Part shown: positions 1 to 24,299 of the stretch, piece by piece
Position numbering within the stretch: the first letter of the stretch is position 1
How the letters are laid out: each line of letters begins with the position of its first letter
Assembly (NCBI GenBank): GCA_049599475.1
Contig: JBMYOQ010000063.1
Location: 1 to 24,299 of the forward strand
DNA: 24,299 nt
Reading direction: 5' to 3'
DNA from: Opitutales bacterium
GTDB lineage: Bacteria > Verrucomicrobiota > Verrucomicrobiia > Opitutales > JABSRG01
Notes under the pieces: generated by a model
Seen by the model: only the letters and a program-made list of their open reading frames with translations
Databases searched by the model: none
What the model was told of the DNA's origin: nothing
Program-made: the position numbers and the translations under genes

Positions 1-52
1 ATGGTGCACTTTCACCCGCAAATTACTGGTGCATTTTAACCGCAAACCGACA
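1..52. mobile_element. Terminal inverted-repeat end of a probable IS21-family insertion sequence (body lies left of the window)
   Basis: Two tandem imperfect copies, TGGTGCACTTTCACCCGCAAA (2-22) and TGGTGCATTTTAACCGCAAA (27-46), followed by CCGACA ending in CA at 52. The reverse complement starts TGT and has reiterated ~20-bp sites, the layout of IS21-family ends. No transposase in the window. Confidence 0.65.
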
Positions 53-461
53 AAACGCTGCAGTATTTTGGGGACATCTGTATAATGCAAACCAGCATGA
101 AACTTACGCGCTTCGCCAAAAATTTGCGCCTTTGTCATGGGTTTTCTAAGGACGCGGATTACCGCGCCCATTCGTTTGGCTGATTGAATCCAATTCACAA
201 CCTCTCTTTTCGCTTCCATCGACAACAGTTGTTTCGCGACATTCATATAGCCACTTACCGAATCAGTGATGGACCAATGACTCCTAATGAGAGACAAACA
301 GATTCTCAGTCAAAAGGGAAAAACACATATAAAAACATTATGCGTATGTAAGGATAAATGACAGAAATCTCGAACACCCCGAAAAGAAAGTAGCCGAATA
401 CCTACAAAACACCCCGATTCAGCTAGGGGACAATTATCAAATTGTAGAAACGTCTAATTCT

Positions 462-821
462 TTGGACACATTCATTCACCAAAGAAGTGATATTCTCAGG
501 AAAAAGCTGAAAGTCTTAATCTCAGAAATAAATACTCGCGGGCAAATACATCAACAGAACACTGCAGATATTCGCGACGATGAATTGACCATCAGCAATC
601 TCATACTGGAGTTAGGTTCATCATATCCGGGTCTAAACGAGCAAATTCAAAAGCAAAGAGATACGCTTAACCTAAGGCTACTCGAACTCAGGAAAGAACG
701 TCGGTCCATTCAACATGAATGTTGGAGAGATCTAGAATCCGTCATCAACGATCACCTGTTACCGACGGTTGAAGGATTGGAGCAATCTAAGGCTAGGGCC
801 CAACTCCTAGGAGGGGAATAA
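462..821 (+). CDS. Hypothetical helical/coiled-coil protein (true start may lie further upstream)
   Basis: 119-aa ORF with heptad-like charged helices; stop lies 3 nt before the ATPase start. The frame is open back to 333. Confidence 0.7.
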   Translation: MDTFIHQRSDILRKKLKVLISEINTRGQIHQQNTADIRDDELTISNLILELGSSYPGLNEQIQKQRDTLNLRLLELRKERRSIQHECWRDLESVINDHLLPTVEGLEQSKARAQLLGGE

Positions 822-824
822 GAA

Positions 825-2174
825 TTGAGAGAAGCAGAACTTAGGGAACAATGCAGAAAGCTGCTCCCAATCATCGGCAAACGAGCAAACTCTCTATGGA
901 AGGCCTATATCACTTCTGACACTCCATCTGAGAAATTTCGCATGGAAAGCCTCATTCAAATGTTTGGGCTAAAGCACTTGGATCGAGATGTATCTCATCG
1001 TCAAATAACCCTTCCACCATCGCATTCTAAGCGTCATTCCCAGAGCGTGCATGCTGGAACCCTGCTTTACAGCGGAAAAGCCGTTTCTGACCTCTTTCTG
1101 AGCCCTGACAACTTCCGGAAGCACATTGGCATTTATGGTATAACAGGTTCAGGGAAAACAAACTGCGCGTATCATCTAATCCAGGGACTAGCCAAACGGA
1201 ATATCCCGGTCTTGATCATTGACTGGAAACGCTCTTACCGCACCCTGCAGTTCATTCCTGACAGCCCCCTTAAAGACATCAAAGTCTTCACTTTAGGGAG
1301 AAAAGGCTCTCATAGCCTGAGCTGGAATCCATTTCGCGGGCCTCCCGGTATCCATCCGCAGACATGGCTATCGGTTGTCGGGGAGGTTCTCGAAAAGTCA
1401 CACATAGCCGGTCAAGGCGTCTTTGATGTATTCATAGAGGTCTTCGATCAAATCTTTGATGAATACGGAGTATATGAGGGCGATGTGGCCAAGTATCCAA
1501 ACTTCTTCGATGCGATGGACCATATTCAGAAGTTTAAATCAGGAAAAGGTCGGCGTGGACTATGGCAAGATAGCTTCACTCGCATTTTCAGGAGCTTCAC
1601 GTTCGGCCCCGCAGCCGGAGCATTCAACGCAAGAAATCCGATTAAGCTGGAAGAACTTCTTTCTGAAAAGATCATCTTCGAATTAGATCAGGAATTGCCT
1701 AAAGCACTGCGAGCCTTTTTCTCGGAGCTTATCCTTAGATTCATTCACCTTGTAAGACTACATCAAGGCGAAACCGAACGCCTGCGACATGTAATCGTCC
1801 TTGAAGAAGTGCATAACCTATTCCCGAAGTCGAGTATCGAGAAACAAACCACAAATAGCTTAGAAATCCTTTTCAAGGAGGTGCGCGGATTCGGCCAAGG
1901 GTTAATCAATATCACACAAAACCCGAGCCTCATCCCTTTGTACATTATCGGAAATTCCAATACACAATTCTTCATGACCCTCTCGCATGAAGACGACATA
2001 ATGGCGGCGAAACGAGCCCTATTCCTGCAACCCGGCGAGGAGCCTTTTCTCGATAGGCTAGCCACAGGAGAAGGGCTCGTAAAAATCCATAGCGCGACCA
2101 GCGCCTGCCATATCCGTGTCCCTAAGGTTAACCTTGTCCAACGACGCCCTGATGCGGAGGAGAATTCAGATTGA
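825..2174 (+). CDS. HerA/FtsK/VirD4-superfamily P-loop ATPase (DUF87-like)
   Basis: Walker A GITGSGKT after HIGIY, IIDWK strand, Walker B VIVLEEVH, and KEVRGFGQGLINITQNPS (arginine-finger/sensor motif of the HerA/VirB4/VirD4 clade). Strong RBS AGGAGG upstream of the TTG start. Confidence 0.88.
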   Translation: MREAELREQCRKLLPIIGKRANSLWKAYITSDTPSEKFRMESLIQMFGLKHLDRDVSHRQITLPPSHSKRHSQSVHAGTLLYSGKAVSDLFLSPDNFRKHIGIYGITGSGKTNCAYHLIQGLAKRNIPVLIIDWKRSYRTLQFIPDSPLKDIKVFTLGRKGSHSLSWNPFRGPPGIHPQTWLSVVGEVLEKSHIAGQGVFDVFIEVFDQIFDEYGVYEGDVAKYPNFFDAMDHIQKFKSGKGRRGLWQDSFTRIFRSFTFGPAAGAFNARNPIKLEELLSEKIIFELDQELPKALRAFFSELILRFIHLVRLHQGETERLRHVIVLEEVHNLFPKSSIEKQTTNSLEILFKEVRGFGQGLINITQNPSLIPLYIIGNSNTQFFMTLSHEDDIMAAKRALFLQPGEEPFLDRLATGEGLVKIHSATSACHIRVPKVNLVQRRPDAEENSD

Positions 2175-2533
2175 TCAGGCGTAAATGGATTAGGTCAGGA
2201 AGCGAAGATTTCGACGCGCGGCAGGAAAGGCTTCTACAGTATGTACTTTCAAAAATTCAATATTATTACAAATACCTATACCAAACTAGAGCTTGTTATC
2301 AATATCCCTTAAATTTGTCGCGTTTGACGAAAATGTGTAATCGAAATGGCAAAGCGGTATTACTCGCAGTCAAGACTCTCGCACATACAACATCAGATTC
2401 CAAAAACATCCACCCAATAATATTCTACGATAGAGTCTGCTCGGAAAAGTTTCCGAGCAAGAGAACTTATAGGATTTTTCTGAGTCGCAAGTCAGATAAC
2501 TTAAACTCGTCAGAGCCATCAGGGCCTCATTAG
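2171..2533 (+). CDS. Small basic hypothetical protein, possibly winged-helix DNA-binding
   Basis: 4-nt TTGA overlap with the ATPase stop (translational coupling). K/R-rich, with LNLSRLTKMCNRNGKAVLLAVKTL resembling an HTH followed by beta strands. Confidence 0.55.
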   Translation: MIRRKWIRSGSEDFDARQERLLQYVLSKIQYYYKYLYQTRACYQYPLNLSRLTKMCNRNGKAVLLAVKTLAHTTSDSKNIHPIIFYDRVCSEKFPSKRTYRIFLSRKSDNLNSSEPSGPH

Positions 2534-2605
2534 AATAAAACTAGATCAATAATTACCCGAGATAGTCACGAGTTGATCTGACAGTTGCGTGAACCGTTAC
2601 CGTAT

Positions 2606-3112
2606 TTAATCCTTCGAAAATTCTATTTCCGAAATAACATCATTATCAGTACCATATCTCCTATCCGGGCCTGCTGACCTTATCTGAAGCACCATTGGTC
2701 CATTATCATCTTTGATATAACTTATTAAATACGGATTTTTCCAAGGGTCGTGCAAATTCCCCTCTACTGAATAATCCAATTTTTTTAACAATTTTTGACC
2801 TATTAACTGCTGAATTTTTCGCTGAGTAAGCTGAGTCTCTTCTCCATCAATTCGTTCCATCACTTCGGTTTGCGGTACGGATGATTGATTTATCGTTTCC
2901 AGCAAAGAATCCTGAAACGATTTAGCGGCGTAATGCCGTGCCTGGTCACTTATTCTGAAACCAACGAGAATTGCAATCGCTAGAAGAGTGAAAGTCGTCA
3001 AAATCACTATTATTTTGAACTTCAAAGGACAGGATATTGCGTTAAAGAAGAACGAAACAAACCTAGTCTTTAAATTCAGTAATCTTGAAGAAATAGCCAG
3101 CAGTGAATTCAA
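2606..3112 (-). CDS. Membrane-anchored protein with type II secretion pseudopilin GspG-like C-terminal domain
   Basis: Hydrophobic segment IIVILTTFTLLAIAILVGF; C-terminal DPWKNPY...IRSAGPDRRYGTDNDV matches the GspG motif DPWG.PY...S.GPDG..GT.DD. The start may be the TTG at 3025. Confidence 0.7.
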   Translation of the reverse strand: MNSLLAISSRLLNLKTRFVSFFFNAISCPLKFKIIVILTTFTLLAIAILVGFRISDQARHYAAKSFQDSLLETINQSSVPQTEVMERIDGEETQLTQRKIQQLIGQKLLKKLDYSVEGNLHDPWKNPYLISYIKDDNGPMVLQIRSAGPDRRYGTDNDVISEIEFSKD

Positions 3113-3419
3113 TCAAGACATTATTCGGGAAACCCTCAATGATTAAGATGTAACTTAGGTCTTCAACATACCTTTTGTAAATTTGGATATTAGTAACTAT
3201 CAACCAATCTTCGTCATATTTCCCGACGACTTTTATTTTTTCGATTCCTTCGACCCTAAACTTTCTTGGGTCCGAATTCTCTGAATCGGAATGGAATTCT
3301 AGCAAACAAGTTGTGTCCTCAGGCTTGAGTTTACTGTTAAGCCTTAGCTTTTGTTCATAAAGCTCTTCGTCTAGCAAGTTTACGGTATCAAGCAATTCTC
3401 GAAAATATGGATACTTCAT
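3063..3419 (-). CDS. Putative immunity protein for the Rhs C-terminal toxin
   Basis: 118 aa, acidic, AT-rich, no signal peptide; ATG sits 1 nt after the Rhs stop (TAA-A-ATG), the canonical toxin-immunity arrangement. Confidence 0.7.
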   Translation of the reverse strand: MKYPYFRELLDTVNLLDEELYEQKLRLNSKLKPEDTTCLLEFHSDSENSDPRKFRVEGIEKIKVVGKYDEDWLIVTNIQIYKRYVEDLSYILIIEGFPNNVLIEFTAGYFFKITEFKD

Positions 3420-3420
3420 T

Positions 3421-6400
3421 TTAAATCATGTTAGGTGGATTTCCGGCAGGCGGATCTACTGGTATAATAACTTCCCCATCACCTGTGGGGGGAGGTCTCA
3501 TGAGCTCTGCTGGAGGCATGATCATTATGGTATTAAATCTGTTTAGAATAGATTGAAGCTTTCTTATCGCCTCATTCATTTTTCCTTTATCAGACCTCGG
3601 GCATGGCTTCGCTTTGCCTCTAGGAGATCCATCTGGGTTGTAGCGTGTTTTGTTGCCATTTTTATCTATTCGATCAATGTGTGGATCTCTGGGAGATCCA
3701 TCTGGGTTTTGGCCATGCCCAAATGGGTCTGGACGATATGTATCTCTCGATCGACCAATGGGGTCTATGTAAGCAATAGGGTTATTACCGACATAGGCAT
3801 ATAAGTTTGAACCCTCGACGAGCAATTCTGGGCGAACTTTGCCGTCAAATGCATCACGACTTAACCATTTTCCTTGTCTTGCATCGTAAACACGGTTTTT
3901 CGCAAACGAATACGCACTCATTTGATGAAACCAATGTCCCGTGTAAAGGAAGTCACTTTCAACACCGATGCCACCGATCTTCTCGACGTCTCCCCATACA
4001 CTGTAATCGTATCGAGATTCCACAGTTGTTCCATCACTTGCCACGACTTCCCGTATGGACCCCAAATGATCTTTTGTGTAATAATAACGGCTTGATCCAT
4101 CTTTGAATCCGTTTTGGTAATAGCCGCGATCGATGGTTATTCCGTTTGAGGAGCGACTCTGTAAAATTCGGTCATTATCCCAAATAAAGAGCTGATTGCT
4201 CTGCTCTATGTTATTTTCATACTCTATAATCCGGATGCGACGATCAAAACCGTCGTAAAAAAACTCACTTTTCTTTGAGGCTTCAATTATGGTGATGAGG
4301 CGATTTTTCACATCCCATTGAAACTCTCTCAGAATAACTCCGCTTGCGTCTTTTTCGAACCGTAGATTCCCGTTTGAATCGTATTCGAACTGAATTTGGA
4401 CACCTGACGCAGTGATTGAATAGCTCTGGCTTGCGGTATTGTTGTTTCCGTCTGTCGCTTCAATTGTAATGGTATTGTTGCCCTCAGCTAGATTTACTAG
4501 TGCTTCAAACGTATAGGGTGCGCTGCCGCCATCAGACAATACCTTGGCTGCTTGACCGTTTACAGTCACAAGAGCTGGCTCATCTATGGTTCCACTGAAA
4601 ACCGTTTCACCAAAGCCTTGCTGAGTAGTCGTTTGATTAAGCGAATTAGCAGGGTAGTTCGTATTTCCACTAGCTGTTGTTACACTCGTGCGGTTTCCAG
4701 CCTTATCGTATCCGTAGGAATATTGTTCTATTGTTCCTTGGGTAATTGTATCAGTGCGAAGAGCAGTTTTTAACCTCGAAGCCTTGTCGTATCCAAAAGT
4801 CCATTTCTTGGCTGCCGCACTGTTTTGCGTGCTTGTCCAAGTTTCGACGTTCCGATCTTGCTCGTAAGAGTAGTCAAACTGCGAAATAACGCTTGGGATA
4901 GGTGCTCCGCTTAGGTGTTTGATCTGTTGAATTAAGTGATCTTCGCTTACGCTCGTGTAAATGTATTCTGTTTTCATCCCATTAGGGTAATCCATGTGAT
5001 CAATGCGATTAGACTGACCCACGTAAGAATAGTCAAATGTACCGAGATTATTGATTACATTTTCGACCCTGCTGCGTGAGTCGTAAATATATTCTACTGC
5101 ATGGCTTGATGTGCTGTAAGTGAGGTCATCGACGATTTCTCGTTTATTCAGCCGCCTCAATGCGTCGTAAGTGTATTTAAGAGTATCATCAGAGAATGGG
5201 CCGTCCACTCTTGCAATTAGGCCACCCCCATTTGTTACTCCGTCATCTGGGTGGTAAATGAAATCAGTTGTTCCGACTCCATCGCTCATCATTACAAGGC
5301 GATCATACCATTGACCATACTCGAAACTCTCATCTGGAGTGTTTGCTGCGGTGTAGTCGATCGACTCAAGATTGCCGTCAATAAAGTAGCTGTGTGTCGC
5401 GGTTTGATTAAGGGCATCTGTTGAAGCCTGAAGTTTTCCCGATTGGGGATAATACGTATAGTTTTCCTTAGAACCGTTATCGTAGCGTTTTTCGGTAACG
5501 CGGCCTTGGACATCTCGGACCCAGTGGGTAACGTTTCCTTCTCCATCTATTAGTTTTCGAATGTCACCGCAACGGCACCATTCATATTGAGTTAGTTGTC
5601 CGAGGGGATCGCGCTCCAAAATCGGTCTCATAAGAGCATCATGAAAGAAACGTGTCCAAAGCCCGTCCCGATCTCGTGAAGCAACAAGGCTATGGTTTTC
5701 GTAGTCGAACTGCTCATACGAACTGTCTGGATAGGTAATAACCGTAACACGGTCTAAGGCATCGTAATCGTATGTAAGGGTGTGTCCTTCTGAATTTGTG
5801 GCTGTGCGAATGCGGTCGAAGCTGTCGTACGTGTAAGTCATTTCCCCGCCGGGAACATCTCCTGTAATCGACAGCAGTTTGCCGTAACCATTGTTATTTA
5901 GATTTGTCTCATAGGTGAAGGTTATGACCTCACTCAGTTCGTTAGTTACTGTTTTAATCTGACCCTCTGCAGTATAGCTGAATGTAGTCGTGTTTCCTCC
6001 GCTATCTGTGAAGGTGCGAGGCAGATGGGCGGGGTCAGCTGCGTTGTAGGTGTAGCTAGCCAAGGTCGAGTAGGTAGGAAAGGCTTCAGTGCCTCCGGTG
6101 CGCTGCTTAATAAAAAGCACGTCGATATCATTCGCGGCGTATTCGATTACGGTTTCACGACCTTTTGGATCGATTTGCTTCGTTAAATTACCTAATCCGT
6201 TATATTCATATTGGATGGCTTGAGTAACCAAAGTTCCCGCTTCATCTTCGACTACACGGGCAACGACAGAGGGGCTGTTGATATACCCCTGAATGTAGGG
6301 CTGGGGCTGGCCCGGATAATTGTACCAAACACGACCTTCTAGTGGCGGTTTCTCGCTCTCTAGAATACTTGTTGCAGCATCTGCCGTGTCTGGCTGGACC

Positions 6401-8646
6401 CAGTGATATAGGTGAGCCTTTGAGTAATCTCCGGCTCCATACTTCATTTGCTGCTTATCCCAATAGAAGGAATTGCGGTCGTCATTATCGCTAGTGCGAT
6501 ATGAAACAATACTACTATCAGGCAATGGTTCGTCTGAATTGCTAATATTCCCGGGCAGCCCTGTTTCGGAGGAGCTTAAGTTGTATTCGATACGCTCTTT
6601 ATCGCCATATGCGTCTGTTGCCTCAATGAATCGAATTAGACTATAACTTCCTAAATCAAAATCGCTCAGCTCAAAGGTGGTCGTCCCGTATGGTGTGGTA
6701 AGCGTGTCAATATCACCACTAGCGTTGTAGTTAAAGCTCGATACAATTCCGTAAACATCTTCGATGTCTGTAAGGCGAACAGCTCCGCTCACATCGTTAT
6801 AGGTGAAGATCGCGGAACGCCCGTAAGGATCTTCTACTTCCGTTACCAGATAGGGTTCACCGGAATATGTGTAGAAAAATTCAGTCGAAAGACCTGTTGC
6901 GTCATGAATGTATTTTAAGCGTGTGGCGTAAGTCGTATCATATTGCAGCGTTACGGTGTTCCCTTGTGGATCAACGATCTTACTTAAGAACACTTTCCGT
7001 TGTGTTCCAGCAGTCCCAATATAGTGCTCATAGTAGTGCTCGCTGTTGTCAGGATAGACTTTTTTATAGGTGTTTGTCGTTAGTTTGACCAGCACTGAAG
7101 AAGTCTGGACATCACGCCCATAAGTCTGCGTGAGATTGTCAAAGTCGGTGTGGATTTCACTGCCTCCTCCACGGAGATATAGAGTAATATTCGAGCCGGG
7201 ACTGCTTGGATTGTCTTCTAAATAAGACACCCAGTTTGAAACCCACTGTGGGCTAAAGCTGGTATAGGCAATTGAGCTCGGCTGCCCAAATTCCCGCTGA
7301 TTGTAATTAACGCGAAGGCGAACATCTGGCCCATATGCTGCGGGATAGCCTACAGGGGTGTCTTCGATGCTGAGGCTGGCAAGAAGTGTGTGAAAGCTAT
7401 AAGTAGCCATCGCAAGACCACTGCAACTATCGCCGCAATCTCCACCATTTTTCTGGTCGCAGTGCGCTGTTTCTTCTTCGCCACCGTTACCAGAATGTCC
7501 CTTACCGAAAATAACAGACGCTTCAGCCGCTATTGGCTCATCCCAACCATTTGGTAATTTGTTAGACGGAATAATAAAGAAACCACTGGCTTCAGCATCA
7601 ATAGCGGCGGGACTCATCCATGTCTCGTTTCCGAACGTTGGGTCTTTAAGCAGATATTTGCCATTTAACTCACGGGTTAAGGCACCATAGTGTCCTACTT
7701 TCCAATGAACGACGGAGGGAATCACTATTTTTGAACCAAGGCTCCGTTTGGCCATTTGCATGTCTAGCCCGAGCTGAGTTGACATCGCTTGAACCTGATC
7801 CAGAGAAAACCCCGTATCTGGAGAAACCACATTTTCTAGGAAAACTGCACAAGCGGCTTCGCTTCCGGGTAGCAATTCCGCCGCAACATTAGTTAAGGCA
7901 TATGGTCCGCAGCGGTAAGCGATACCGCCTTTGTTTTGCATTGACCAATAACCTTCTCGCGCGCTGTCCACTAGGATACGGGCTGTTCCTTGAAATGACC
8001 TGCCCTCGATTTTCTCAAAAACAGAAGCTAATTCATCCTTTCGGCCAATCCGTGCACACATCTTGGCATATTCAGCGATGGAGCGGTTCGCTATAGACAC
8101 CGAGTGTCTATCTGTGCCGTCTTTGGCTCCTTCCCATGCAGCCATCCAAAAACTAAGAGCTTTTGAGAAATAGCCCGTATCATATGAAATGAGACCAAGA
8201 TTAAGTTGAAGGCCAGGAGTCCAGATGGACTGTGGATACGTTTCAATAAAAGATTCAAGGGGAGCAATCGCTTCGGCATCACCGATTTCCATGTAAGTTT
8301 TAAGCGCTGCTACGATGGCTGATCTTTCTTCAAGGCTGGCACTGCCCTGAGCAGTTAGCAAGGGTTCGGGTAAACTATCTAAGTGCGTTAATTCACTATT
8401 GCTGAGATTGTCACTGAGGACACGGTTAGCCTGTCCGTAAGAGGGCGGCGATATCATTCGCCTCTTTTTGCTTTGAGCAACGTCGCTCATCTTTTTCTCT
8501 GGAGCAGACCAAGCTTTGGATAACTCTTGTTTAATTTTGGCAATTTCTTGCTCTTGCGAACGTGCTTCAGCGAAAACATTTATAGATGCGGAGGCCGCAC
8601 CCATTGCTAAGCCCCACAGAATGGCTTTTTTTATTTTGGTTTGCAT
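3421..8646 (-). CDS. Rhs/YD-repeat polymorphic toxin with signal peptide, TPR-like helices, C39-like cysteine peptidase, internal Ig-like insert and ~110-aa C-terminal toxin domain
   Basis: Sec-type N-terminus; CGPYAL (C246), GHY (H319), DP (D335); many YD repeats (YDSFDR, YDALDR, YDKAGNR); Rhs core DHLGSIR...YTG...NRVYD...GKWLSRD...NLYAYVGNNPIAYIDPIG ending at aa 1631. Confidence 0.95.
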   Translation of the reverse strand: MQTKIKKAILWGLAMGAASASINVFAEARSQEQEIAKIKQELSKAWSAPEKKMSDVAQSKKRRMISPPSYGQANRVLSDNLSNSELTHLDSLPEPLLTAQGSASLEERSAIVAALKTYMEIGDAEAIAPLESFIETYPQSIWTPGLQLNLGLISYDTGYFSKALSFWMAAWEGAKDGTDRHSVSIANRSIAEYAKMCARIGRKDELASVFEKIEGRSFQGTARILVDSAREGYWSMQNKGGIAYRCGPYALTNVAAELLPGSEAACAVFLENVVSPDTGFSLDQVQAMSTQLGLDMQMAKRSLGSKIVIPSVVHWKVGHYGALTRELNGKYLLKDPTFGNETWMSPAAIDAEASGFFIIPSNKLPNGWDEPIAAEASVIFGKGHSGNGGEEETAHCDQKNGGDCGDSCSGLAMATYSFHTLLASLSIEDTPVGYPAAYGPDVRLRVNYNQREFGQPSSIAYTSFSPQWVSNWVSYLEDNPSSPGSNITLYLRGGGSEIHTDFDNLTQTYGRDVQTSSVLVKLTTNTYKKVYPDNSEHYYEHYIGTAGTQRKVFLSKIVDPQGNTVTLQYDTTYATRLKYIHDATGLSTEFFYTYSGEPYLVTEVEDPYGRSAIFTYNDVSGAVRLTDIEDVYGIVSSFNYNASGDIDTLTTPYGTTTFELSDFDLGSYSLIRFIEATDAYGDKERIEYNLSSSETGLPGNISNSDEPLPDSSIVSYRTSDNDDRNSFYWDKQQMKYGAGDYSKAHLYHWVQPDTADAATSILESEKPPLEGRVWYNYPGQPQPYIQGYINSPSVVARVVEDEAGTLVTQAIQYEYNGLGNLTKQIDPKGRETVIEYAANDIDVLFIKQRTGGTEAFPTYSTLASYTYNAADPAHLPRTFTDSGGNTTTFSYTAEGQIKTVTNELSEVITFTYETNLNNNGYGKLLSITGDVPGGEMTYTYDSFDRIRTATNSEGHTLTYDYDALDRVTVITYPDSSYEQFDYENHSLVASRDRDGLWTRFFHDALMRPILERDPLGQLTQYEWCRCGDIRKLIDGEGNVTHWVRDVQGRVTEKRYDNGSKENYTYYPQSGKLQASTDALNQTATHSYFIDGNLESIDYTAANTPDESFEYGQWYDRLVMMSDGVGTTDFIYHPDDGVTNGGGLIARVDGPFSDDTLKYTYDALRRLNKREIVDDLTYSTSSHAVEYIYDSRSRVENVINNLGTFDYSYVGQSNRIDHMDYPNGMKTEYIYTSVSEDHLIQQIKHLSGAPIPSVISQFDYSYEQDRNVETWTSTQNSAAAKKWTFGYDKASRLKTALRTDTITQGTIEQYSYGYDKAGNRTSVTTASGNTNYPANSLNQTTTQQGFGETVFSGTIDEPALVTVNGQAAKVLSDGGSAPYTFEALVNLAEGNNTITIEATDGNNNTASQSYSITASGVQIQFEYDSNGNLRFEKDASGVILREFQWDVKNRLITIIEASKKSEFFYDGFDRRIRIIEYENNIEQSNQLFIWDNDRILQSRSSNGITIDRGYYQNGFKDGSSRYYYTKDHLGSIREVVASDGTTVESRYDYSVWGDVEKIGGIGVESDFLYTGHWFHQMSAYSFAKNRVYDARQGKWLSRDAFDGKVRPELLVEGSNLYAYVGNNPIAYIDPIGRSRDTYRPDPFGHGQNPDGSPRDPHIDRIDKNGNKTRYNPDGSPRGKAKPCPRSDKGKMNEAIRKLQSILNRFNTIMIMPPAELMRPPPTGDGEVIIPVDPPAGNPPNMI
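3623..3708. repeat. 17-bp direct repeat GGAGATCCATCTGGGTT inside the Rhs C-terminal domain (NPDGSP twice)
   Basis: Exact copies at 3623-3639 and 3692-3708. Confidence 0.85.
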
Positions 8647-8656
8647 ACGTATCGAA

Positions 8657-11600
8657 TTAAAGGGCTACGGCGTGCGGTGGTTGTTCTAGGGTAATCAGAG
8701 GAGCGCTTGTGTCTGAACCATTGGAAGGGCGGCTGTTCATATTCGGATCGAGTGGGAACTCATCTATATCATCATTGACACCGTCTCCATCCGTATCTGC
8801 CAGAGCCGGGTCAGTCCCGAGTGCTAACTCCTGCGCATTGGTGAGGCCGTCTCCATCGTTGTTATTTTCAGTAAGACCTATTCCTATCGTCAGCCCAATA
8901 GAGTCGTCGATGCCGTCTTGATTGAGATCGGTATCCAAATCTTCCGTATCTGCCACAAGGGGATTGGTTCCTGTTACGAAGATTTCATCGCTGTCGTTTA
9001 TCAAATCACCATCGGTGTCACCATTTAAGGGGTCAGTTTGATTCTGGTATTCCTGTAAGTGAGTTAGCGTATCGCTGTCAGCATTACTTGAAGGGTCAGT
9101 TAATCCGAAATATACCATCCATGTTTCAGCAACACCGTCTTCATTTGCGTCAACTGCCTCATCTACACCGATATCAACAACACCATCGTCTCGAAGTTCA
9201 CCGTCAAAGTCGAAAATGCTGTGCTCGGTTACAATCCCAGCATCCTTAGCGGGTGAATTATGATAAATCCCATAGTAAGGCGTAATGCCCGGATTGCGCG
9301 TATTTTGATCAGTCGCATCAATAAAAACGCTGCCTGTGCTAGAATCTCGGTGAAGTGTATTTTGGAAGATGATACCATTGGTGTTCCCTTCAATTTCATC
9401 ACCATTTCCGAAAGCGTTATTCCATATGAGTGTGTTGATTAAGCGAATGTCGTTGCTGTTTGATCCACTATAGATCGCTGCTCCGCTAGGGGCTATATTA
9501 TCTACTAACGAGCATGACACAAAAGTAATATCTCCAGATGCGACATAGATAGCTCCACCGATATTGGTTGCCTCATTATTCGCAAACAAGCAGCCAACAA
9601 TCCATAGGTCAGTTTGATTGTTTCCAGCAGAAATATACATCCCTGCACCATTCGATAAATTCGAGGTCGAGCCTCCCTTTTGGATGGTGAAACCGTCGAT
9701 TACACCTTCTGAGTAAAAATCGATCAGATTGTCATATCGACCAGTTCCATCAATAGTGGTGGCACGTGCATGATCGCGACCGAACAGAAACACTCGATCA
9801 CTTATATAAATATCTTCGTTGTAGGTTCCGGGCAAGACCTCGATAATATCAAAGTCTTCCGCTGCATTGAGGGCTGCCTGTATGGTCTTCTTTTCGTAAG
9901 TTGTCTCGTTTGCTAGAGTGCTATCGACAATGAAGTAGTTGACGCTTCCAACATCGGTAAGCGGATGCACTGTTGATTGGCTTGCAGAATACTGAGGCAG
10001 GCTGGTGCCGTCCGTTGGATCAGTCCCATGATAGTATTCGAAGATATTTGGATAACGGTCACCATCAGCATCGCCAGACGCTTCGGCTAATAGTTTGCCG
10101 AAATATTGGTATTCCCAAGCGTCGTCTATACGATTTGAATTCGTATCAGCTAAAACTGTCAGTTTGATTGGACGTGAGTCATTCTCTTGTGAGTTATCTA
10201 AAATCACTCTTGCGAAAAGAGAGTGCTCACCTGAAGGCATGTCATACCATGTCCTGTAAAAAATATTTCCGCTAGATGGGGAGGTGTCTTGGCCGATGTA
10301 ATAGTCGTCAGCATAGAATTCTACACGATCTATGTCATCAGGAGTATCCAGCACCTCAGCTTTGAGCTGGGTAGTTGAGGTGTTCAGGTCATCACCTTCG
10401 AGTAAAACTAGATTGGCGATGGGTTGAGTTAGATTAGCAAACGGGATATCAAAACTGTAGGGAATTGACCATGGAGATGTCCCAAGCCCTGTGTGGGCTA
10501 TTGTTATAGTGTCTGAGTAGATAGCAGGAATGACATTTTCCGTATCAATCGACAAATTCAGCAGTTGATTGCTGCTATTCGCAACCGTTCCGCTTAAGGG
10601 CGTAAGCGAAAGCATAGGCTTCGTTACCTTGAACTTTATCGCTAGGTTGTTTTGAAGATAGATTTCATTATGAGCGACAGTCAGGCCTTGGTTACGTGAA
10701 ACGTTTTGAATGCCGATTGTGCATTCATCAGTATCGCCATCTAATTGCTTGTAGAAAAATTCAATTTCCCCGTTAGCATTAAGAACGATTTGAAACGTGA
10801 TGTTGCCGGAGTTGTCATCTTTAGCAACGGCTTCGTATTGAACAATCAATTGGGTTGCAGATTCTTTATAGTAAATTGAACCGTTCGTACCGGTGTCTAG
10901 GTCGTCCCAAAATGCAGCGATTTTTCCGTATGCTCCGCCTGTGTAAGACAGTGGGTTATTCCAAGAAGTGTTGAATTCCTGTTGGAAATTGAGGTAACCG
11001 TTGGTTGAAACCCATATTTCTGAACGATTTCGACCGTAATAAGGGAAGCTGAACTGTGTCAGCGTAAGCATCTCGGAATCATTGTCATCGTCGGCGATTG
11101 TCAGTAACTCGGTGCCTGTGCTACTGATATCATTCCATGAGTAGATCGCGCTACCCGTCAATGAGTCCTCCCATTGATAGCCTCCTACATTCACTCCATT
11201 CAGAGTAGCTGTATAATTGGCATTACTCGCGGTGTCATTATTCACGTAAAGCTCACGAGTGTGATTCTGCCCCCAATCCATTTTCTCTTCTAGGCTCGGG
11301 TAAAAAACAGCAACGACATCCTGCCAATATAACTCCCAGTCGTCTGGTAGTTGATTAGAGTTCAAATCCAAACCCGCGAAAGGGTCGGTATTCTGATTCA
11401 ACTCATCCTGATTACCTATGGTATCCCCATCTAGGTCATAGCCCCATGGGTCGCCTCCCATATCGATGTCTGTATACTTAAGACGGAAGAAGAGCTTGTC
11501 ACTGGTAGAATTGAAATTCCAGCTGATTGGCAGGTCAAAACCGGGCTCGATAATAGGCGCATAAGCCCAATCCGTAAGAAGGTCATCTGTGCTCAGTATA

Positions 11601-11767
11601 AAATACGTCCTGTTGTCGCGACCAAACCATGACAGTGTGCCGCTATCAGTTACACCGTCATAATCGATCTGAAAGCCTTCATTTAAATCGCTGGCCGTTT
11701 GCGCATTTCCACAAAAGGCGACCCCTAAAAGGCAAAAACATGAGAGAGGATAAAGCTTGGGCGTCAT
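8657..11767 (-). CDS. Large secreted multidomain protein: DxDxDG (bacterial TSP3-like) Ca-binding repeats, NIDO-like domain, Ig-like domains, right-handed beta-helix
   Basis: Signal peptide; repeats DLDGDTIGN, DADGDRYPN, DTDGDLIND, DTDGDGVND; FSFPYYG...VSTNGYL...IAAFWDDL...TFQIVL (NIDO-like); IDRVEFYAD (bacterial Ig); TIQAALNAA...VLPGTYNE...IDGFTI...GGAIY (pectin-lyase-like beta-helix). Confidence 0.88.
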   Translation of the reverse strand: MTPKLYPLSCFCLLGVAFCGNAQTASDLNEGFQIDYDGVTDSGTLSWFGRDNRTYFILSTDDLLTDWAYAPIIEPGFDLPISWNFNSTSDKLFFRLKYTDIDMGGDPWGYDLDGDTIGNQDELNQNTDPFAGLDLNSNQLPDDWELYWQDVVAVFYPSLEEKMDWGQNHTRELYVNNDTASNANYTATLNGVNVGGYQWEDSLTGSAIYSWNDISSTGTELLTIADDDNDSEMLTLTQFSFPYYGRNRSEIWVSTNGYLNFQQEFNTSWNNPLSYTGGAYGKIAAFWDDLDTGTNGSIYYKESATQLIVQYEAVAKDDNSGNITFQIVLNANGEIEFFYKQLDGDTDECTIGIQNVSRNQGLTVAHNEIYLQNNLAIKFKVTKPMLSLTPLSGTVANSSNQLLNLSIDTENVIPAIYSDTITIAHTGLGTSPWSIPYSFDIPFANLTQPIANLVLLEGDDLNTSTTQLKAEVLDTPDDIDRVEFYADDYYIGQDTSPSSGNIFYRTWYDMPSGEHSLFARVILDNSQENDSRPIKLTVLADTNSNRIDDAWEYQYFGKLLAEASGDADGDRYPNIFEYYHGTDPTDGTSLPQYSASQSTVHPLTDVGSVNYFIVDSTLANETTYEKKTIQAALNAAEDFDIIEVLPGTYNEDIYISDRVFLFGRDHARATTIDGTGRYDNLIDFYSEGVIDGFTIQKGGSTSNLSNGAGMYISAGNNQTDLWIVGCLFANNEATNIGGAIYVASGDITFVSCSLVDNIAPSGAAIYSGSNSNDIRLINTLIWNNAFGNGDEIEGNTNGIIFQNTLHRDSSTGSVFIDATDQNTRNPGITPYYGIYHNSPAKDAGIVTEHSIFDFDGELRDDGVVDIGVDEAVDANEDGVAETWMVYFGLTDPSSNADSDTLTHLQEYQNQTDPLNGDTDGDLINDSDEIFVTGTNPLVADTEDLDTDLNQDGIDDSIGLTIGIGLTENNNDGDGLTNAQELALGTDPALADTDGDGVNDDIDEFPLDPNMNSRPSNGSDTSAPLITLEQPPHAVAL

Positions 11768-11778
11768 AACGTTTAGAA

Positions 11779-12663
11779 TTATTGAGATTCTGTGTAGCTA
11801 CTGTTCTTGCCGGGCCAGAAATTAGTTATGGTTGGCTTGGGTTGCTTCGGATTCTTCTTTTCGTATTCTAGCCGGGCGTCACGGAGTTTTTCGGCATTGA
11901 TGTGAGCAATTTTCAATTGCTTCTCATGTTCCAAATAGTAGCTGAGTAAGCCATCCATATGCTCATAGAGCTTATCAGGGACGTTTTCGGAGGTATCAGC
12001 TTCTATCACATATTCAGTGTATTCCTCTGATAGCTGAACGGGGGGGTCAAACCAGCGAGAATCATATTCATAGCCGAGTTTTTCTGCATCTTTTCCGCGC
12101 TTTTTTTCGTCCTCTTCACTAACTACTTCTGAGAATCCAAAATAACTGTAATGAGCCGATTCAGTTTCAAAGCTCGAAATCGGGCTCAAGTAGAGAAGCG
12201 CCAAATTGGTCCACACGGTAAAACGCTTTCCATCATCAGGATTATTCCAATAGATACGAGTGTGAGACTCCTTATAAACCGTTGCTGAAATAGAAATCAT
12301 TTCATGGGGACGCAATTGTTCGGGAAATACTGCAATCGATGTGGATTCGACAATCTCAGGATTCGATTCTGTGAGCTTAGTATTTTCTCCGATACTCACC
12401 TCCTCTTCGTTGGCATTATTGATCGCTGGAGCTGAGATCCTGCGGACGATGATTTGCGATGGAGCAACGTCTAAAACATTCTGATCAAGGACAGTGACTG
12501 CATTAATCTGAGCACGTTTTTCTGCGTCGCGCTCTTCCTTAGCTTCCACCTCAGCCTCTACTATGGATTGCGCCTCATCCTCACTTATCAGTCGTGGCTC
12601 TTCTTGTGCAGAAATAAATGGCCCAAGAATACAAATCGGAAACAGATACACTAAATTTTTCAT
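11779..12663 (-). CDS. Secreted hypothetical protein, first gene of the Rhs operon
   Basis: 294-aa ORF with N-terminal signal peptide; 11-nt gap to the next gene on the same strand. No family recognised. Confidence 0.8.
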   Translation of the reverse strand: MKNLVYLFPICILGPFISAQEEPRLISEDEAQSIVEAEVEAKEERDAEKRAQINAVTVLDQNVLDVAPSQIIVRRISAPAINNANEEEVSIGENTKLTESNPEIVESTSIAVFPEQLRPHEMISISATVYKESHTRIYWNNPDDGKRFTVWTNLALLYLSPISSFETESAHYSYFGFSEVVSEEDEKKRGKDAEKLGYEYDSRWFDPPVQLSEEYTEYVIEADTSENVPDKLYEHMDGLLSYYLEHEKQLKIAHINAEKLRDARLEYEKKNPKQPKPTITNFWPGKNSSYTESQ

Positions 12664-12827
12664 AAATCTAACTAATAGCGATGATCAAACCCCGCTCACA
12701 TTTTCCAGTCCAGCTATAAATCAAATGGACTATAACTATTATTCAATGGTTTCCGAAAAGCAGTCTTAGCCGTGACTACTCAATGATATAGACCGCCCCG
12801 TTCTTTCCCTACCTGAATCTCAAACGA

Positions 12828-14429
12828 CTAATCTTGATAAGCATTAGCCCAGCAATATTCCAACGCTTCAAACATGACAGTCATATGATTTTCAAAATCT
12901 TCCTTAGAAATATTTTGCCCCATGTAGCGCGCTAGCTTAACCTTTTGGTTAATTCTCGTGCTGGTTCGCAGTTCTACAGGGTAATAGTCTTCAAGCCCAT
13001 GCACGGGCAGAACGAATAACTGGTTATCTGCTCCGTTGTGCCGACGACCGTTTCTAAAATCATTAAAACGCTGCTCTTTTCCCACATCAGGTTTATCAAA
13101 GAGGATGGCAAGCCGCTCTCTGTAAATCGGTCGCCGATCAATGGTAGCCAACAAATCCTCTACCGCAGTGACTTGCTGCCGTTGGCGTTCGTCATCTCCA
13201 TTGGCAGGCAAAATGTGGATTTGTATACGATCAGAATAATGCCGTTCAATAACATGCTTATAAAACTCTACTTCACTAGGCCCTTCAACGATTAGGAAAT
13301 TTGCGGGAAGCAAAATATCAGCTGGAGACCCTCCAAGAAGCTCGAAAATAACTTCGTGTTTTATTGCTAGAGAAGAGACTTTGCTTATCTGGGTCTCGCC
13401 ACCCAATTCTTTCGCTACCCTGAAGATTGTCTGCTGATCATTAGGGTCTCTAAGTAGGACAGAAGAATGAGTATTAATAAAAACCTGATCATGACTGTCC
13501 GCCAACTCTAGAAGTGCTTGTTTGAGCTGTCGCTGAGCCGTCGGATGAAGGTGCAACTCAGCTTCATCTATAAAAAAGATGAACGAACGCCCAAGAGCAT
13601 CATCACGCCTTTGGTCAGCATATGTCTTAATAATGGCAAGCATCAACGCTCGCTGCATTCCATCTCCTTTTTCCTCAGCCGCAGTGGAGACACCATCATC
13701 AACTTGGGTTCTAAAATTTTTCAACAGATCATCAAATGCCGGTTCCTCCACCTTGAAGCCAACTTCCGCACATTCAGGGAACTGCATCCTAAGATGCCCA
13801 CAGACCATACCGCTAATTTCTTTGAGCTTTCGCTTAATACTAGAGCTTTCAGAGGCAAATAGTTTGTCGAATTGCTCACGGAATTTTATATACTCTTCCT
13901 CCGACTCAAGCATTTCCGAAAAGACTCCACCGAGCATCTTTCCTATCGGAGTAGTGGTTTTATAGTTCCCCACATCCTTCAGATTCTTGGTTGCTTCGAC
14001 AAATTCAAATCGAGGAATACAATTATTAAATGGTCCATCTGAGCCACACGGCTGTTTCTTCCATCTCCCATCCCTAGGGTTATATAAAAAGCGATCTTTC
14101 GGCCGATCACTAGTGCGCCTTACCCACATAGTATTACTCGCCTCTAAAACCTTTCTTAGCTTTAGCTGATTTTCGGAATTACTGATCTGGGAGAGCCCCT
14201 CCTGAACCCCTGAAAATTCCAACTCTACGGAGACTATCTCATCCTCGGCAGCGTCCGAACGTTTCACATCGGGAAGAAGGCCGACTCCTTTATAGAACCA
14301 CTGAATGGCTTCAAATAAATTTGTTTTTCCGTGATTATTTTGGCCCACGAAAACATTGAAATTGGAAACATCGACCTCTACTCGGCGAATCGAGCGATAG
14401 TTCTCTACGGTGATCTTGGATATTCTCAT
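12828..14429 (-). CDS. OLD-family ATP-dependent nuclease (ABC ATPase + TOPRIM)
   Basis: ITVENYRSI start, Walker A GQNNHGKT, signature KGDGMQR, Walker B FFIDEAELHLHP, H-loop INTHS, TOPRIM LIVEGPSE, later FDKPD and LEDY. Confidence 0.9.
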   Translation of the reverse strand: MRISKITVENYRSIRRVEVDVSNFNVFVGQNNHGKTNLFEAIQWFYKGVGLLPDVKRSDAAEDEIVSVELEFSGVQEGLSQISNSENQLKLRKVLEASNTMWVRRTSDRPKDRFLYNPRDGRWKKQPCGSDGPFNNCIPRFEFVEATKNLKDVGNYKTTTPIGKMLGGVFSEMLESEEEYIKFREQFDKLFASESSSIKRKLKEISGMVCGHLRMQFPECAEVGFKVEEPAFDDLLKNFRTQVDDGVSTAAEEKGDGMQRALMLAIIKTYADQRRDDALGRSFIFFIDEAELHLHPTAQRQLKQALLELADSHDQVFINTHSSVLLRDPNDQQTIFRVAKELGGETQISKVSSLAIKHEVIFELLGGSPADILLPANFLIVEGPSEVEFYKHVIERHYSDRIQIHILPANGDDERQRQQVTAVEDLLATIDRRPIYRERLAILFDKPDVGKEQRFNDFRNGRRHNGADNQLFVLPVHGLEDYYPVELRTSTRINQKVKLARYMGQNISKEDFENHMTVMFEALEYCWANAYQD

Positions 14430-14703
14430 TGCTATATCAAACTTCTACCTAATCGACTGCGCGAAACTTGAGCTGATTCACATAGTAAAACATACAATTT
14501 CGTGGCTATATTCGATAACCCATAGAGGTAACTAATGATTTAAAAAGTGCACGACAAATTCGCCTCTGACGGCGCTACGCATGATAATTACCGATACAGG
14601 GACCTCTGATTTAGAACCTAGCCCTCGTCAGTGAACTTTCTCCAACTCACAAAATAAGACACAAAGCTTGTGTCATACTTTTTCTTCCAAATCACCGATT
14701 CCA

Positions 14704-14716
14704 TAAATCGTTGATT
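14704..14716. promoter_or_regulatory. IHF-binding consensus site next to the tRNA 3' end (att-site accessory)
   Basis: TAAATCGTTGATT matches YAANNNNTTGATW exactly; a weaker copy TAAGCTTTTGAAT lies at 14884-14896. Confidence 0.5.
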
Positions 14717-14729
14717 TTCAATCAAATAG

Positions 14730-14805
<76 letters not shown>

Positions 14806-14934
14806 TCATGGCACTTCTAGGCACATGCAAAATAAGACACAAATACGACACATCGTTTTCGCGCATGTGTGTCTTATTTTGTATAAGCTTTTGAATACTA
14901 AAAAGTTAGAATCTGTAAAGAACAAGGTTGACCA

Positions 14935-14977
<43 letters not shown>

Positions 14978-14989
14978 ATCAGTAAAACC

Positions 14990-15035
14990 TTCGATAAAGG
15001 CGTGAGAATGATGGCCCGTCAACCGGTTTTTTAGA
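14990..15035 (-). promoter_or_regulatory. Possible sigma70 promoter of the tRNA locus
   Basis: TTGACG -35 at 15022-15017 with an upstream A-tract; the -10 region is a poor match. Confidence 0.35.
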
Positions 15036-15064
15036 AAATCCTCATCAATTCGCTGCGAGGCCCG

Positions 15065-16483
15065 TTACCACGTGTATTCGACCGTGTAACGGATCTTGGT
15101 TTCTTCGCCGGCTTTAAGAGATTTCTTCAAAACTAGGGTATCTGCTTGCGGACGCTCTGAAGCATCTGCTGTGAACTGAATAATCTTGGCATTCATTGAG
15201 CGCACAAGCGGCTCGCGTATCTCTATGCTTACCGGCTCTTCTTTTCGGTTTGCCAATCGGTATTCGATGGTTTCCTGCATCCATTTCCGGCCACTCACTA
15301 CCTGAAAGTCGACCTGCTTGCGCTCGGCGACGAGGTCAAAGGCATTTCCGAGAAGCAAATCGAGGGTCTCGTCCTTGGGCGTGTGTTCCACCCGATCCTC
15401 TCCAATGAACTCAAGGGAATCTTCATCACTCTGATAAAAGCGCATCCGCCCGGCGGGTATCGGCATGCCTAGAGCATTGTTTTCGGAGTTTTCAATAAAG
15501 ACGCGTTTCTCAACTTTTGGACCCTCACCTCGGCCAAGAAAGCCCGGATCTTGATACACACCTCGACCGTACATCCCCCGAAAGTTGCGTGCCACGTCGA
15601 CAATGTACCGCGTGTCACCACGAACGCCTGTTGCATTCATGAATTCGACCTGTTTGGTCTGCTGATTCTCTAGATCGGTCTGATAAGGCAGCGTATACAA
15701 ATGGAAATCAGCGAATGCTTTCTGACTAACGCCTTCATTGCGAGATGCGCCCGCAGCAAAAGACATTTCTGCTCTAACCCGATAAACAGATGGCTCAGGT
15801 TGCACACGATTCACCTCCCCGGCCATGAGCTTAATATTCGCCTGCTCAAAACGGGTGCCGCTATTATTTGTCAAAGTCACCCATCCGACGACATCATAGA
15901 TATCGCCCCCGCGCGCGACTACGTTGTAATCCGCCTTCCAGCGAAAACCTGTACTGATATAGCTCAGCTCGCCTTCAAACGCCTGATTCCCCTCGGACAA
16001 GATATCCCAAGCTAGGCGTGGGCGAAGGAGGGAGCCTTCCCCGAGACTTGGAAAAATTGCACGCCCGGGGAGCCCGGTCATAATTCCACGCTCAGTCTGC
16101 ACGATCGGCTGATTGCCTCCGCGGATGATTTTACCCGTTTCGTAGACTGCGTATCCACTGTCATTCGTCCCGGTCAGGAACGTAATTTCTTTCCCTTCAA
16201 ATTTCTTAAGCAAGAGGTCTTGGTTCAAAGTGCCTCCCTCGTAATTTTGCTCCAAAATTCTAAATTTCGCAGCCCCGGCAGGGTCTCGAAACACGACAGA
16301 GTCCGGTTCCAGGAAGCGGGTAATTTCCTGATTGGTAACAGTGTTTAGCCCATCACTGAGGTCGACATCGAAGGTCTGCCGGACAACTGCGAAGTTATCA
16401 TTGTAGATCGTTAAGGAGGGAGAACTCGCACAGAGGCTCCCGCAACACAGGATAAGAAGGGATAAATGGGATCGCATAGCCAT
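15065..16483 (-). CDS. DUF4139 domain secreted protein
   Basis: Signal peptide; LTIYNDNFAVVR, LSYISTGFRWKADY, GWVTLTNNSG, LMAGEVNRV, HLYTL, LGMPIPAGRMRFY, FIGEDRVEHTPKDE motifs typical of DUF4139 proteins. Confidence 0.85.
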   Translation of the reverse strand: MAMRSHLSLLILCCGSLCASSPSLTIYNDNFAVVRQTFDVDLSDGLNTVTNQEITRFLEPDSVVFRDPAGAAKFRILEQNYEGGTLNQDLLLKKFEGKEITFLTGTNDSGYAVYETGKIIRGGNQPIVQTERGIMTGLPGRAIFPSLGEGSLLRPRLAWDILSEGNQAFEGELSYISTGFRWKADYNVVARGGDIYDVVGWVTLTNNSGTRFEQANIKLMAGEVNRVQPEPSVYRVRAEMSFAAGASRNEGVSQKAFADFHLYTLPYQTDLENQQTKQVEFMNATGVRGDTRYIVDVARNFRGMYGRGVYQDPGFLGRGEGPKVEKRVFIENSENNALGMPIPAGRMRFYQSDEDSLEFIGEDRVEHTPKDETLDLLLGNAFDLVAERKQVDFQVVSGRKWMQETIEYRLANRKEEPVSIEIREPLVRSMNAKIIQFTADASERPQADTLVLKKSLKAGEETKIRYTVEYTW

Positions 16484-16527
16484 ACTACGATCCAGACACA
16501 GATTCCTTAGACTTTAAAACAAAGATG

Positions 16528-17535: not shown

Positions 17536-17603
17536 TTTTAAATATACAGCAAAATCAATGTCACGCTCGACTTTGGCACATTTTTCTCTGGTTTCTGTAA
17601 GCT

Positions 17604-18596: not shown

Positions 18597-18643
18597 TGCA
18601 TTTGCTAGGAATTAGCCGCTGATTGCCAGCAGACCAGCGCTCA

Positions 18644-19939: not shown

Positions 19940-19975
19940 AAGCCGGGTCGTCTCCTAAACGACCCGGCCTCTCTT
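19931..19975. terminator. Intrinsic terminator between convergent P450 and TonB-C genes
   Basis: 10-bp stem GCCGGGTCGT/ACGACCCGGC (19942-19968) with a long U tract on the minus strand and CTCTCTT on the plus strand. Confidence 0.8.
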
Positions 19976-20019
19976 ACCATACCGTCCCGGAGCTCACTAC
20001 ACTCCGAGAAATTTTCAAA

Positions 20020-21133: not shown

Positions 21134-21155
21134 CAGCAGCAACGTATTTAATTTT

Positions 21156-24257: not shown

Positions 24258-24299
24258 GGGGGATTTCGTTAAGAGACTATTATTGAGTAACTCTCGACT

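Follow-up and report, generated by a model that had tools for sequence, protein, structure and literature searches.

A truncated Ig-like insert in an Opitutales Rhs protein and a strand-like tail on its operon partner, possible parts of one domain split over two polypeptides

The Rhs operon, its insert and the partner tail

The stretch of DNA analysed here (the window) comprises 24,299 nt, positions 1-24,299 of contig JBMYOQ010000063.1 from an Opitutales bacterium (assembly GCA_049599475.1; genome of 4.68 Mb). On its minus strand it carries an operon in which a 1741-aa Rhs/YD-repeat toxin (3421-8646) is encoded directly behind a 1036-aa partner protein (8657-11767). A 294-aa open reading frame (ORF) precedes the partner gene, a 118-aa ORF follows the Rhs gene, all in the same orientation, and 10 nt lie between the partner stop codon and the Rhs ATG at 8646. 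The Rhs protein is identified by its YD (RHS) repeats (PF05593, E 2.3e-32 in Pfam; TIGR01643, E 4.9e-25 in NCBIfam) and its Rhs-associated core (TIGR03696), and the translated partner has a signal-like N-terminus, a NIDO/Big_7/beta-helix-like body, TSP3 calcium-binding repeats and a C-terminal tail. Here we describe an immunoglobulin (Ig)-like insert in the Rhs shell that is encoded without its first strands, the partner tail that resembles those strands, and the evidence for and against the two forming a single domain.

The insert is a stretch of 67 aa (aa 1346-1412, GETVFSG...SQSYSIT; nt 4411-4611, minus strand) lying between two YD repeats. A preliminary description of this DNA had placed there (nt 4402-4611) an insert of the Glucodextran_B type devoid of its first strand, and both points held, with a slightly different start. 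In the Pfam search, aa 1350-1413 matched positions 21-81 of the 83 positions of Glucodextran_B (PF09136), with E 2.4e-9 and 37.4 bits in the whole protein and with E 2.2e-11 and 44 bits when the insert was excised, against a gathering cut-off of 27. As the match begins at position 21, the first 20 positions, which hold the first strand of a whole domain, are unmatched; the insert is in this respect different from domain B of glucodextranase (PF09136; PDB 1ug9), which represents its sequence family. The distance from the shell motif NSLNQ to the first matched strand, strand B, is likewise about 7 residues (TTTQQGF), compared with about 20 in complete domains, and strands A and A' are both missing. 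The insert occupies the same site, between N-x-L-N-Q and the next YD repeat, in 43 of 52 aligned homologues, the other nine continuing directly from one to the other. A search of PDB sequences with the insert profile gave nothing convincing, its best match (7on7, E 9.9e-4) being to a repeat protein over 25 residues.

The partner ends in ...SDTSAPLITLEQPPHAVAL-stop. Its last 18 residues (8660-8713, minus strand; 8657-8713 with the stop codon at 8657-8659) are the proposed donor of strands A/A' and belong to a C-terminal module that reads ...DTDGDGVNDDIDEFPLDP-NMNSRPSNGS-DTSAPLITLEQPPHAVAL-stop. The last TSP3-type motif of the protein, DTDGDGVNDDIDEFPLDP (8744-8797), is kept together with the tail, and the linker between them (NMNSRPSNGS, 8714-8743), 10 aa rich in Ser, Pro and Asn, corresponds to 7-15 variable residues in the alignment of partner C-termini. 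Across 34 such C-termini the TSP3 motif is near-invariant at D15, D17, G18, D19, G20, D23, D26, P29 and D31, and P47, I49 and P54 of a P-x-I-x-L-x-x-P motif are invariant and found at the same terminal position. The consensus of the 18-residue tail up to the stop codon is D-T-x-A-P-x-I-x-L-x-x-P-x-x-A-V-x-L, with 3-10 residues separating the second Pro of the motif from the stop codon. These terminal tails come from 34 loci distributed over Verrucomicrobiota, Myxococcota, Planctomycetota, Gemmatimonadota and Fibrobacterota. The motif is also terminal in all eight database proteins that combine TSP3 with the tail motif, and in none of them does the rest of the domain follow. The earlier suggestion that the gene upstream of the Rhs gene ends in an orphan copy of an Ig first strand is thus borne out, and extended to a conserved terminal element.

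Outside this module the partners have little in common. Among 14 partners scanned, the bodies comprised pectinesterase/beta-helix, Laminin_G_3, six Calx-beta, RCC1 propellers, nine Big_7 plus Ig, NIDO and DUF5122, and the C-terminal module (TSP3 motif and tail) alone was constant; the partner of the window gave weak Pfam matches to TSP3_bac, Big_7 and Chlam_PMP and weak NCBIfam matches to NosD, CglD and choice-of-anchor Q. One tail-bearing homologue, P0133, ends in ...GDTTPPVITLFEPIGAVPVP and is named in its source as a fibronectin type III domain protein from Chthoniobacter flavus, a cultured organism and hence a possible experimental system. Pfam returned no match for the tail alone (30 or 40 aa, E up to 10), a piece too short for its filters. 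Loose matches to a tail regular expression in six loci (L015, L026, L037, L042, L068 and L076), in short or off-strand ORFs outside a TSP3 context, and in six ORFs of this genome were set aside as chance.

Within the present genome the tail is confined to Rhs partners. Of 9407 ORFs of at least 100 aa, two end in it (E 2.4e-10 and 1.8e-9 with a hidden Markov model, HMM, of the tail; next best 0.04), and both lie directly upstream of the only two Rhs matches of the genome. The second operon, on contig C112, encodes a partner 48-49% identical to the first, ending in ...SDTTAPLITLGKPPEAVLL-stop, and an Rhs protein with 40% identity and the same insert. Being short, conserved and placed at the very C-terminus of secreted-type proteins, the tail might also be read as a sorting or anchoring signal for a secretion or surface-attachment system, with no relation to the insert, and an exosortase gene and a PEP-CTERM protein are indeed encoded elsewhere in the window. 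We regard this explanation as very improbable: a general signal should mark many proteins and not only the two beside Rhs genes, the tail sequence has neither the hydrophobic helix nor the basic end of the PEP-CTERM type, and in five phyla it always stands next to an insert-bearing Rhs gene.

Complementary matches to one domain profile and co-occurrence across loci

Two database proteins, P0106 and P0107, carry tandem complete copies of the domain that are 39-45% identical to the insert, and each copy opens with D-T-x-a-P-x-i-x-v-x-x-P-x-x-g-x-l followed by q-x-T-V-s-G-T. A domain HMM of 84 positions was built from 16 of the complete tandem units of these proteins and used as a common frame for the two pieces. 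All 26 inserts start at positions 17-25 of this model and end at positions 72-83, and in all 34 partners the very end of the tail aligns from positions 1-3 through 10-19. The scores of single tails had a median of 3.25 bits and a maximum of 10.1, compared with a median of -1.7, a 95th percentile of 1.7 and a maximum of 5.5 for 680 shuffled tails, of which 75 also showed a tail-like geometry. When profiles were compared with hhalign, the last 18 tail residues corresponded to positions 1-18 (P 8.8e-4) and the insert to positions 21-83 (P 4e-14), which places the split point in the loop between strands A' and B.

Eight Big_7 repeats were also tried as the reference in hhalign and rejected; with them the tail profile gave no alignment to the first strand (probability 1.4%) and the insert over 29 columns only (32%), and the tandem units of P0106 and P0107 were taken as the closer reference because Big_7 is another family. 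Two further loci, L126 (genome G312) and L128 (genome G376), were not counted, as they encode complete tandem domains with their own first strand and no shell insert. These are long secreted-type proteins in which each domain copy has a DT.PP first strand and beside which no tail-bearing neighbour was seen, and they represent natural unsplit comparators.

The preliminary description had proposed to follow insert and tail across homologous operons. A scan of species-representative genomes returned 336 Rhs relatives, the best 80 of which were kept and resolved into 73 distinct loci. With the insert called at HMM E up to 1e-3, 27 of the 73 loci were insert-bearing. The upstream DNA was readable in 24 of them and a tail was present in every case (24/24), the other three Rhs genes (L024, L033 and L047) lying at a contig start, where an upstream tail was not assessable. 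Automatic detection yielded 21 of these tails, and those of L018 and L043, cut by contig ends, and of L059, in a frameshift-ridden assembly, were found after the ORF-length limit had been lowered. In contrast, a tail was found in none of the 21 loci whose Rhs gene is complete through the core and lacks the insert (0/21); in these genes N-x-L-N-Q runs directly into the next repeat, and two of them (L062 and L073) have little upstream DNA. Nine more loci possess the tail on contigs that end before the insert site, leaving the insert state unreadable, and 16 were too incomplete to judge, with no tail found in an upstream extent that was not checked locus by locus.

A sample of 401 genomes of the phylum provided eight more long ORFs with an insert-like match, six of which were Rhs genes with the truncated insert, the other two being the unsplit proteins of L126 and L128, and each of the six had a tail upstream. 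The tail HMM recovered three of these tails with E up to 6e-6 and two weakly (0.039 and 0.062); the sixth, in L127, was recognised by eye alone and has Val in place of the invariant Ile. As both operons of the present genome combine insert and tail, the assessable insert-bearing loci with a tail amount to 32 of 32 (24 public, six from the phylum sample and two here), against none of the 21 without insert.

How much weight this table can bear depends on the phylogeny. In a FastTree tree of 49 Rhs shells, calculated with the insert columns removed, the insert state changed at least twice and the insert-bearing lines were paraphyletic; among the 46 rows in which both traits could be read, 22 had both, 24 had neither and there was no mismatch. 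The peptidase C39-like domain of these Rhs proteins is found as well in genes that have neither insert nor partner, and it is therefore not the correlate of the partner. When the 22 pairs of tail and insert were set side by side no clear pattern of covariation emerged, the pairs being too few and too closely related. A weak insert-HMM match in L049 (E 4.9e-4) was not counted, as it falls in a downstream ORF that is not an Rhs gene. A metagenome scan with a generic TSP3 pattern gave 39 loci, mostly on short contigs, and no insert match; one of these loci, L084, has the sole tail-like end, which is followed by 10 more residues. Downstream of its main Rhs gene, the Myxococcota locus L012 contains two more insert-bearing Rhs fragments (18147-20972 and 21423-24527), which look like orphan cassettes extending back past the insert.

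A second conserved ending was observed beside insert-less Rhs genes. In C39-Rhs loci devoid of the insert, large neighbours encoded on the same strand, before or after the Rhs gene, often end in ...[FY][FY]R[LV] and 2-6 further residues. Among 777 closed ORFs of at least 250 aa, 17 have this ending, and they come from 13 loci; twelve of these (L049, L053, L058, L060, L062, L064, L067, L075, L078, L079, L080 and L081) are insert-less or of unknown insert status, and L031, with one of the 17 ORFs, is insert-bearing. The TSP3 proteins P0129, P0139 and P0151 end in the same way. Judged from these sequences, it may be a second partner ending, mutually exclusive with the first.

Structure predictions and the proposed joint

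An AlphaFold2 model of 1200 aa of the Rhs protein (aa 441-1640, from 65 aligned sequences), the putative closed beta-cocoon, consists of beta-hairpins throughout, with a mean predicted local distance difference test score (pLDDT) of 91.3 and a predicted template modelling score of 0.83. In this model the insert (model residues 906-972) forms six strands, its 10-residue blocks having pLDDT values of 86-91 except for one at 76, and the preceding flank contributes to it a single strand that is three residues long. The insert alone (aa 1340-1420, from 26 sequences) was predicted with a pLDDT of 75.7. The best VIA matches related it to the Ig-like domains of sulfite dehydrogenase (2ca3_A; Z 8.2, root-mean-square deviation 1.8 over 71 residues) and to residues 706-780 of glucodextranase 1ug9 (Z 7.8, root-mean-square deviation 3.1 over 70 residues, 26% identity), Z values of 7.8-8.2 being in the range of common arrangements. 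Foldseek found nothing in the PDB at E up to 0.001.

When Rhs aa 1336-1425 and the 60 C-terminal residues of the partner were co-folded, a check of the kind proposed in the preliminary description, the interaction prediction score from aligned errors (ipSAE) was 0.46, 0.47 and 0.45, compared with 0.00 in three controls. The runs shared at least 97% of their contacts, the pLDDT of the partner was at least 55, and the verdict of the procedure was 'weak support'. Of 157 solved complexes 116 reach the pass mark, as do two of 215 mismatched pairs, and passes at 0.60 or under comprise 18 of the 157 solved complexes and both passing mismatches; these calibration counts are approximate here, as self-made alignments were used. 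The two pieces thus scored together above their controls; the result came as a score with no interface, so that the placement of the peptide in the groove of strand A is a proposal.

Taken together, these data lead us to favour a reading in which the Rhs protein and its partner are joined by one Ig-like domain split over two polypeptides, the tail giving strands A/A' in trans and docking a variable targeting protein to the cocoon; we put its probability at roughly 60%. It is favoured because tail and insert tile a single domain profile exactly, because a conserved and strictly terminal tail stands on otherwise unrelated partner bodies and is limited to the partners of Rhs proteins, because partner and insert have been gained or lost together while the C39-like domain shows no such link to the partner, and because of the weak pass in co-folding. 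The socket would be a beta-sandwich of the Glucodextran_B type without strands A and A', set in a loop of the YD cocoon of a protein that also comprises a predicted Sec signal, the C39-like domain and a variable C-terminal cargo. The plug would be a secreted partner whose body differs by lineage and whose constant end joins the TSP3 motif to the 18-residue tail by a short linker of variable sequence. Once both proteins had been exported, the tail would lie on the open edge of the Rhs insert and supply strands A/A', a donor-strand complementation in which the missing strand is N-terminal and the donor C-terminal. Such a joint would couple the toxin cocoon to a variable subunit for binding or targeting, and a role in display or targeting would fit the variable, adhesin-like bodies of the partners.

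Several points weigh against this reading. AlphaFold2 builds a compact and confident six-strand sandwich from the insert with no partner present, and a seven-strand Ig domain can enter a loop only if a terminal strand is dropped, so that the truncation is explicable without any partner. The co-fold is a weak pass that delivers a score without an interface and does not fix the position of the peptide, and the reading presupposes an insert that faces outward on the cocoon. Scores of single tails against the domain HMM are low, with 10.1 bits for the best. The tree offers only two independent contrasts, both concordant (sign test, p 0.5), and with so few of them the co-occurrence table is striking but statistically thin; plain co-inheritance of partner and insert within clades would produce the same table. 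The support is, moreover, computational throughout. The donor-strand joining put forward in the preliminary description is partly supported: the co-occurrence, the tiling of the profile and the weak co-fold speak for it, every computational check suggested there having turned out in its favour, and the contact itself is a proposal.

The main rival explanation builds on the same observations. The insert would be a self-sufficient, strand-reduced sandwich that lost strand A on insertion into a loop, with both ends on one side, and the conserved C-terminal module of the partner would bind elsewhere on the Rhs protein or serve another step such as export or calcium-dependent folding, its likeness to strand A being a relic of a former C-terminal Ig domain. 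The folding of the insert without strand A in AlphaFold2, a co-fold that gave no interface, the weak profile scores of single tails and the small number of independent contrasts (two) all speak for it. We nevertheless consider it unlikely, as it does not account for a tail that stops 3-4 residues before the start of the insert in the domain profile, tiling it without overlap, or for the rest of the domain never following the tail in 34 loci and eight of eight database proteins. Moreover, the insert is the only feature of the Rhs protein that varies with the partner, and the two pieces on their own co-fold with an ipSAE of 0.46 against 0.00 in the controls, albeit as weak support.

Complementation could also be transient, the tail serving in the manner of a chaperone strand to maintain the insert, or the whole Rhs protein, in a folding-competent state during export and later being released or exchanged for a strand of another molecule, for example on the target cell. 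The sequence evidence is the same as for a lasting joint, and chaperone-usher pili, in which a temporary donor strand precedes exchange, offer an analogy. However, the partner bodies are large, variable and of binding type and do not have a conserved chaperone fold, and the operon revealed no third donor of a strand; we hold a merely temporary role of the tail to be less probable still than a self-sufficient insert.

Other features of the locus and relation to known systems

The remainder of the Rhs protein is organised as follows. The N-terminus (MQTKIKKAILWGLAMGAASASINVFA, aa 1-26; 8569-8646, minus strand) is predicted by eye to be a Sec signal peptide. It is followed by a Peptidase_C39-like domain (aa 245-360; 7567-7914, minus strand; PF03412, E 6e-6, 26.6 bits with the cut-off at 22), a match obtained on the N-terminal 430 aa, in which C246, H314 and H319 are invariant or nearly so across 29-55 homologues. 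The Rhs-associated core (aa 1548-1631; 3754-4005, minus strand; TIGR03696, E 6.6e-14) ends in DPIG (aa 1628-1631) and is followed by a variable C-terminal cargo of 109 aa (aa 1633-1741; 3424-3750, minus strand), for which Pfam gave no match at E up to 1; the paralogous Rhs protein of this genome diverges completely after the core.

Directly downstream of the Rhs gene, the 118-aa ORF (3063-3419, minus strand) is a candidate immunity gene by its position alone; no family match was found for it in Pfam or NCBIfam and no homologue in the other loci. The 294-aa ORF directly upstream of the partner (11779-12663, minus strand) has a signal-like N-terminus and no family match in Pfam and NCBIfam scans, and it may be a third member of the operon, since weak tblastn matches occur at the same position in L017 (3e-5) and L026 (7e-6). 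The stretch that holds the operon (1-15000) has a G+C content of 0.41-0.48, compared with 0.45-0.54 for 15000-24299, and also contains a HerA/DUF87-type ATPase gene (825-2174, plus strand) and an AAA_15 ATPase gene (12828-14429, minus strand); the low G+C and these ATPases give it the look of a genomic island. The far end of the window holds the exosortase (EpsH) gene (21627-22496, plus strand) and the gene for a Laminin_G_3 protein with a PEP-CTERM end (23445-24257, minus strand), both of which are unrelated to the partner tail.

In chaperone-usher pili (PapD or FimC with their pilins) and in type V pili, an Ig-like fold that lacks one strand is completed by a strand of another polypeptide; there it is the C-terminal strand G that is lacking, and its place is taken by a strand of the chaperone or by the N-terminal extension of the following pilin. 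The sequence profiles likewise describe the Rhs insert as an Ig fold encoded minus one strand, and its completion in trans would equally make a tight non-covalent joint. In contrast to pili, the part missing here is the N-terminal A/A', the donor would be a C-terminal tail, and in place of a fibre subunit the acceptor would be a domain in the wall of a toxin cocoon. As, in addition, the scanned ORFs of the window matched neither a chaperone nor an usher family, we do not count the pair as a member of the pilus donor-strand system.

A parallel is offered by the Tc (ABC) toxins, in which the TcB-TcC cocoon docks on TcA via a beta-propeller inserted in its shell. In them, as proposed here, a domain inserted in the wall of a YD/Rhs cocoon joins it to a separate large receptor-binding subunit. 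The Opitutales insert is, however, a truncated Ig sandwich of 67 aa and not a propeller, its cocoon is a single chain that also bears a predicted Sec signal and the C39-like domain, the partners (beta-helix, LamG, Calx-beta, RCC1) are not TcA-like, and the proposed joint is a shared fold in place of a surface contact. Neither a beta-propeller insert nor N-terminal domains of the TcB/TcC type nor a TcA partner came up when the Rhs protein and its partner were scanned against Pfam and NCBIfam.

The Rhs effectors of the type VI secretion system attach to VgrG via PAAR or clade domains and are not known to have a signal peptide. The protein described here shares the predicted YD cocoon, the Rhs core and the variable C-terminal toxin with such effectors, among them Tse15, RhsA and Rhs1. 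It differs from them in starting with a signal-like peptide and a C39-like domain, and neither it nor the partner nor any other window ORF that was scanned matched a PAAR or VgrG family. An engineered counterpart is found in SpyTag/SpyCatcher, a split CnaB2 Ig-like domain whose strand is locked by an isopeptide bond. There, as proposed for the partner tail, a short peptide completes the Ig-like sandwich of another protein; the present split differs in being natural and conserved across phyla and in showing no indication of an isopeptide bond. In full-text literature searches no account of Rhs shells with an Ig insert, or of a tail like this one, came to light, nor did passages on C39, Verrucomicrobia and TSP3 in the review PMC3482391 contain one.

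The distribution of the two pieces permits a broader conjecture, which we advance tentatively and with less than even confidence: in at least five phyla, the 18-residue tail might function as a universal strand tag on interchangeable binders, allowing any body to be plugged into any Sec-exported cocoon, and the insert-less sister clade may use a second tag (...F-Y-R-L/V...) for the same purpose.

In summary, the way in which Rhs toxins other than those fired by a type VI system get to their targets is largely unknown. If the split-domain reading is correct, a large family of Sec-exported C39-Rhs proteins, ranging over Verrucomicrobiota, Myxococcota, Planctomycetota and other phyla, would recruit a separately encoded and freely exchangeable targeting subunit by means of a shared fold. 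This would provide a testable answer on both delivery and specificity and a new natural case of fold complementation outside pili, and the small natural pair of peptide and domain could possibly serve as a tool for coupling proteins.

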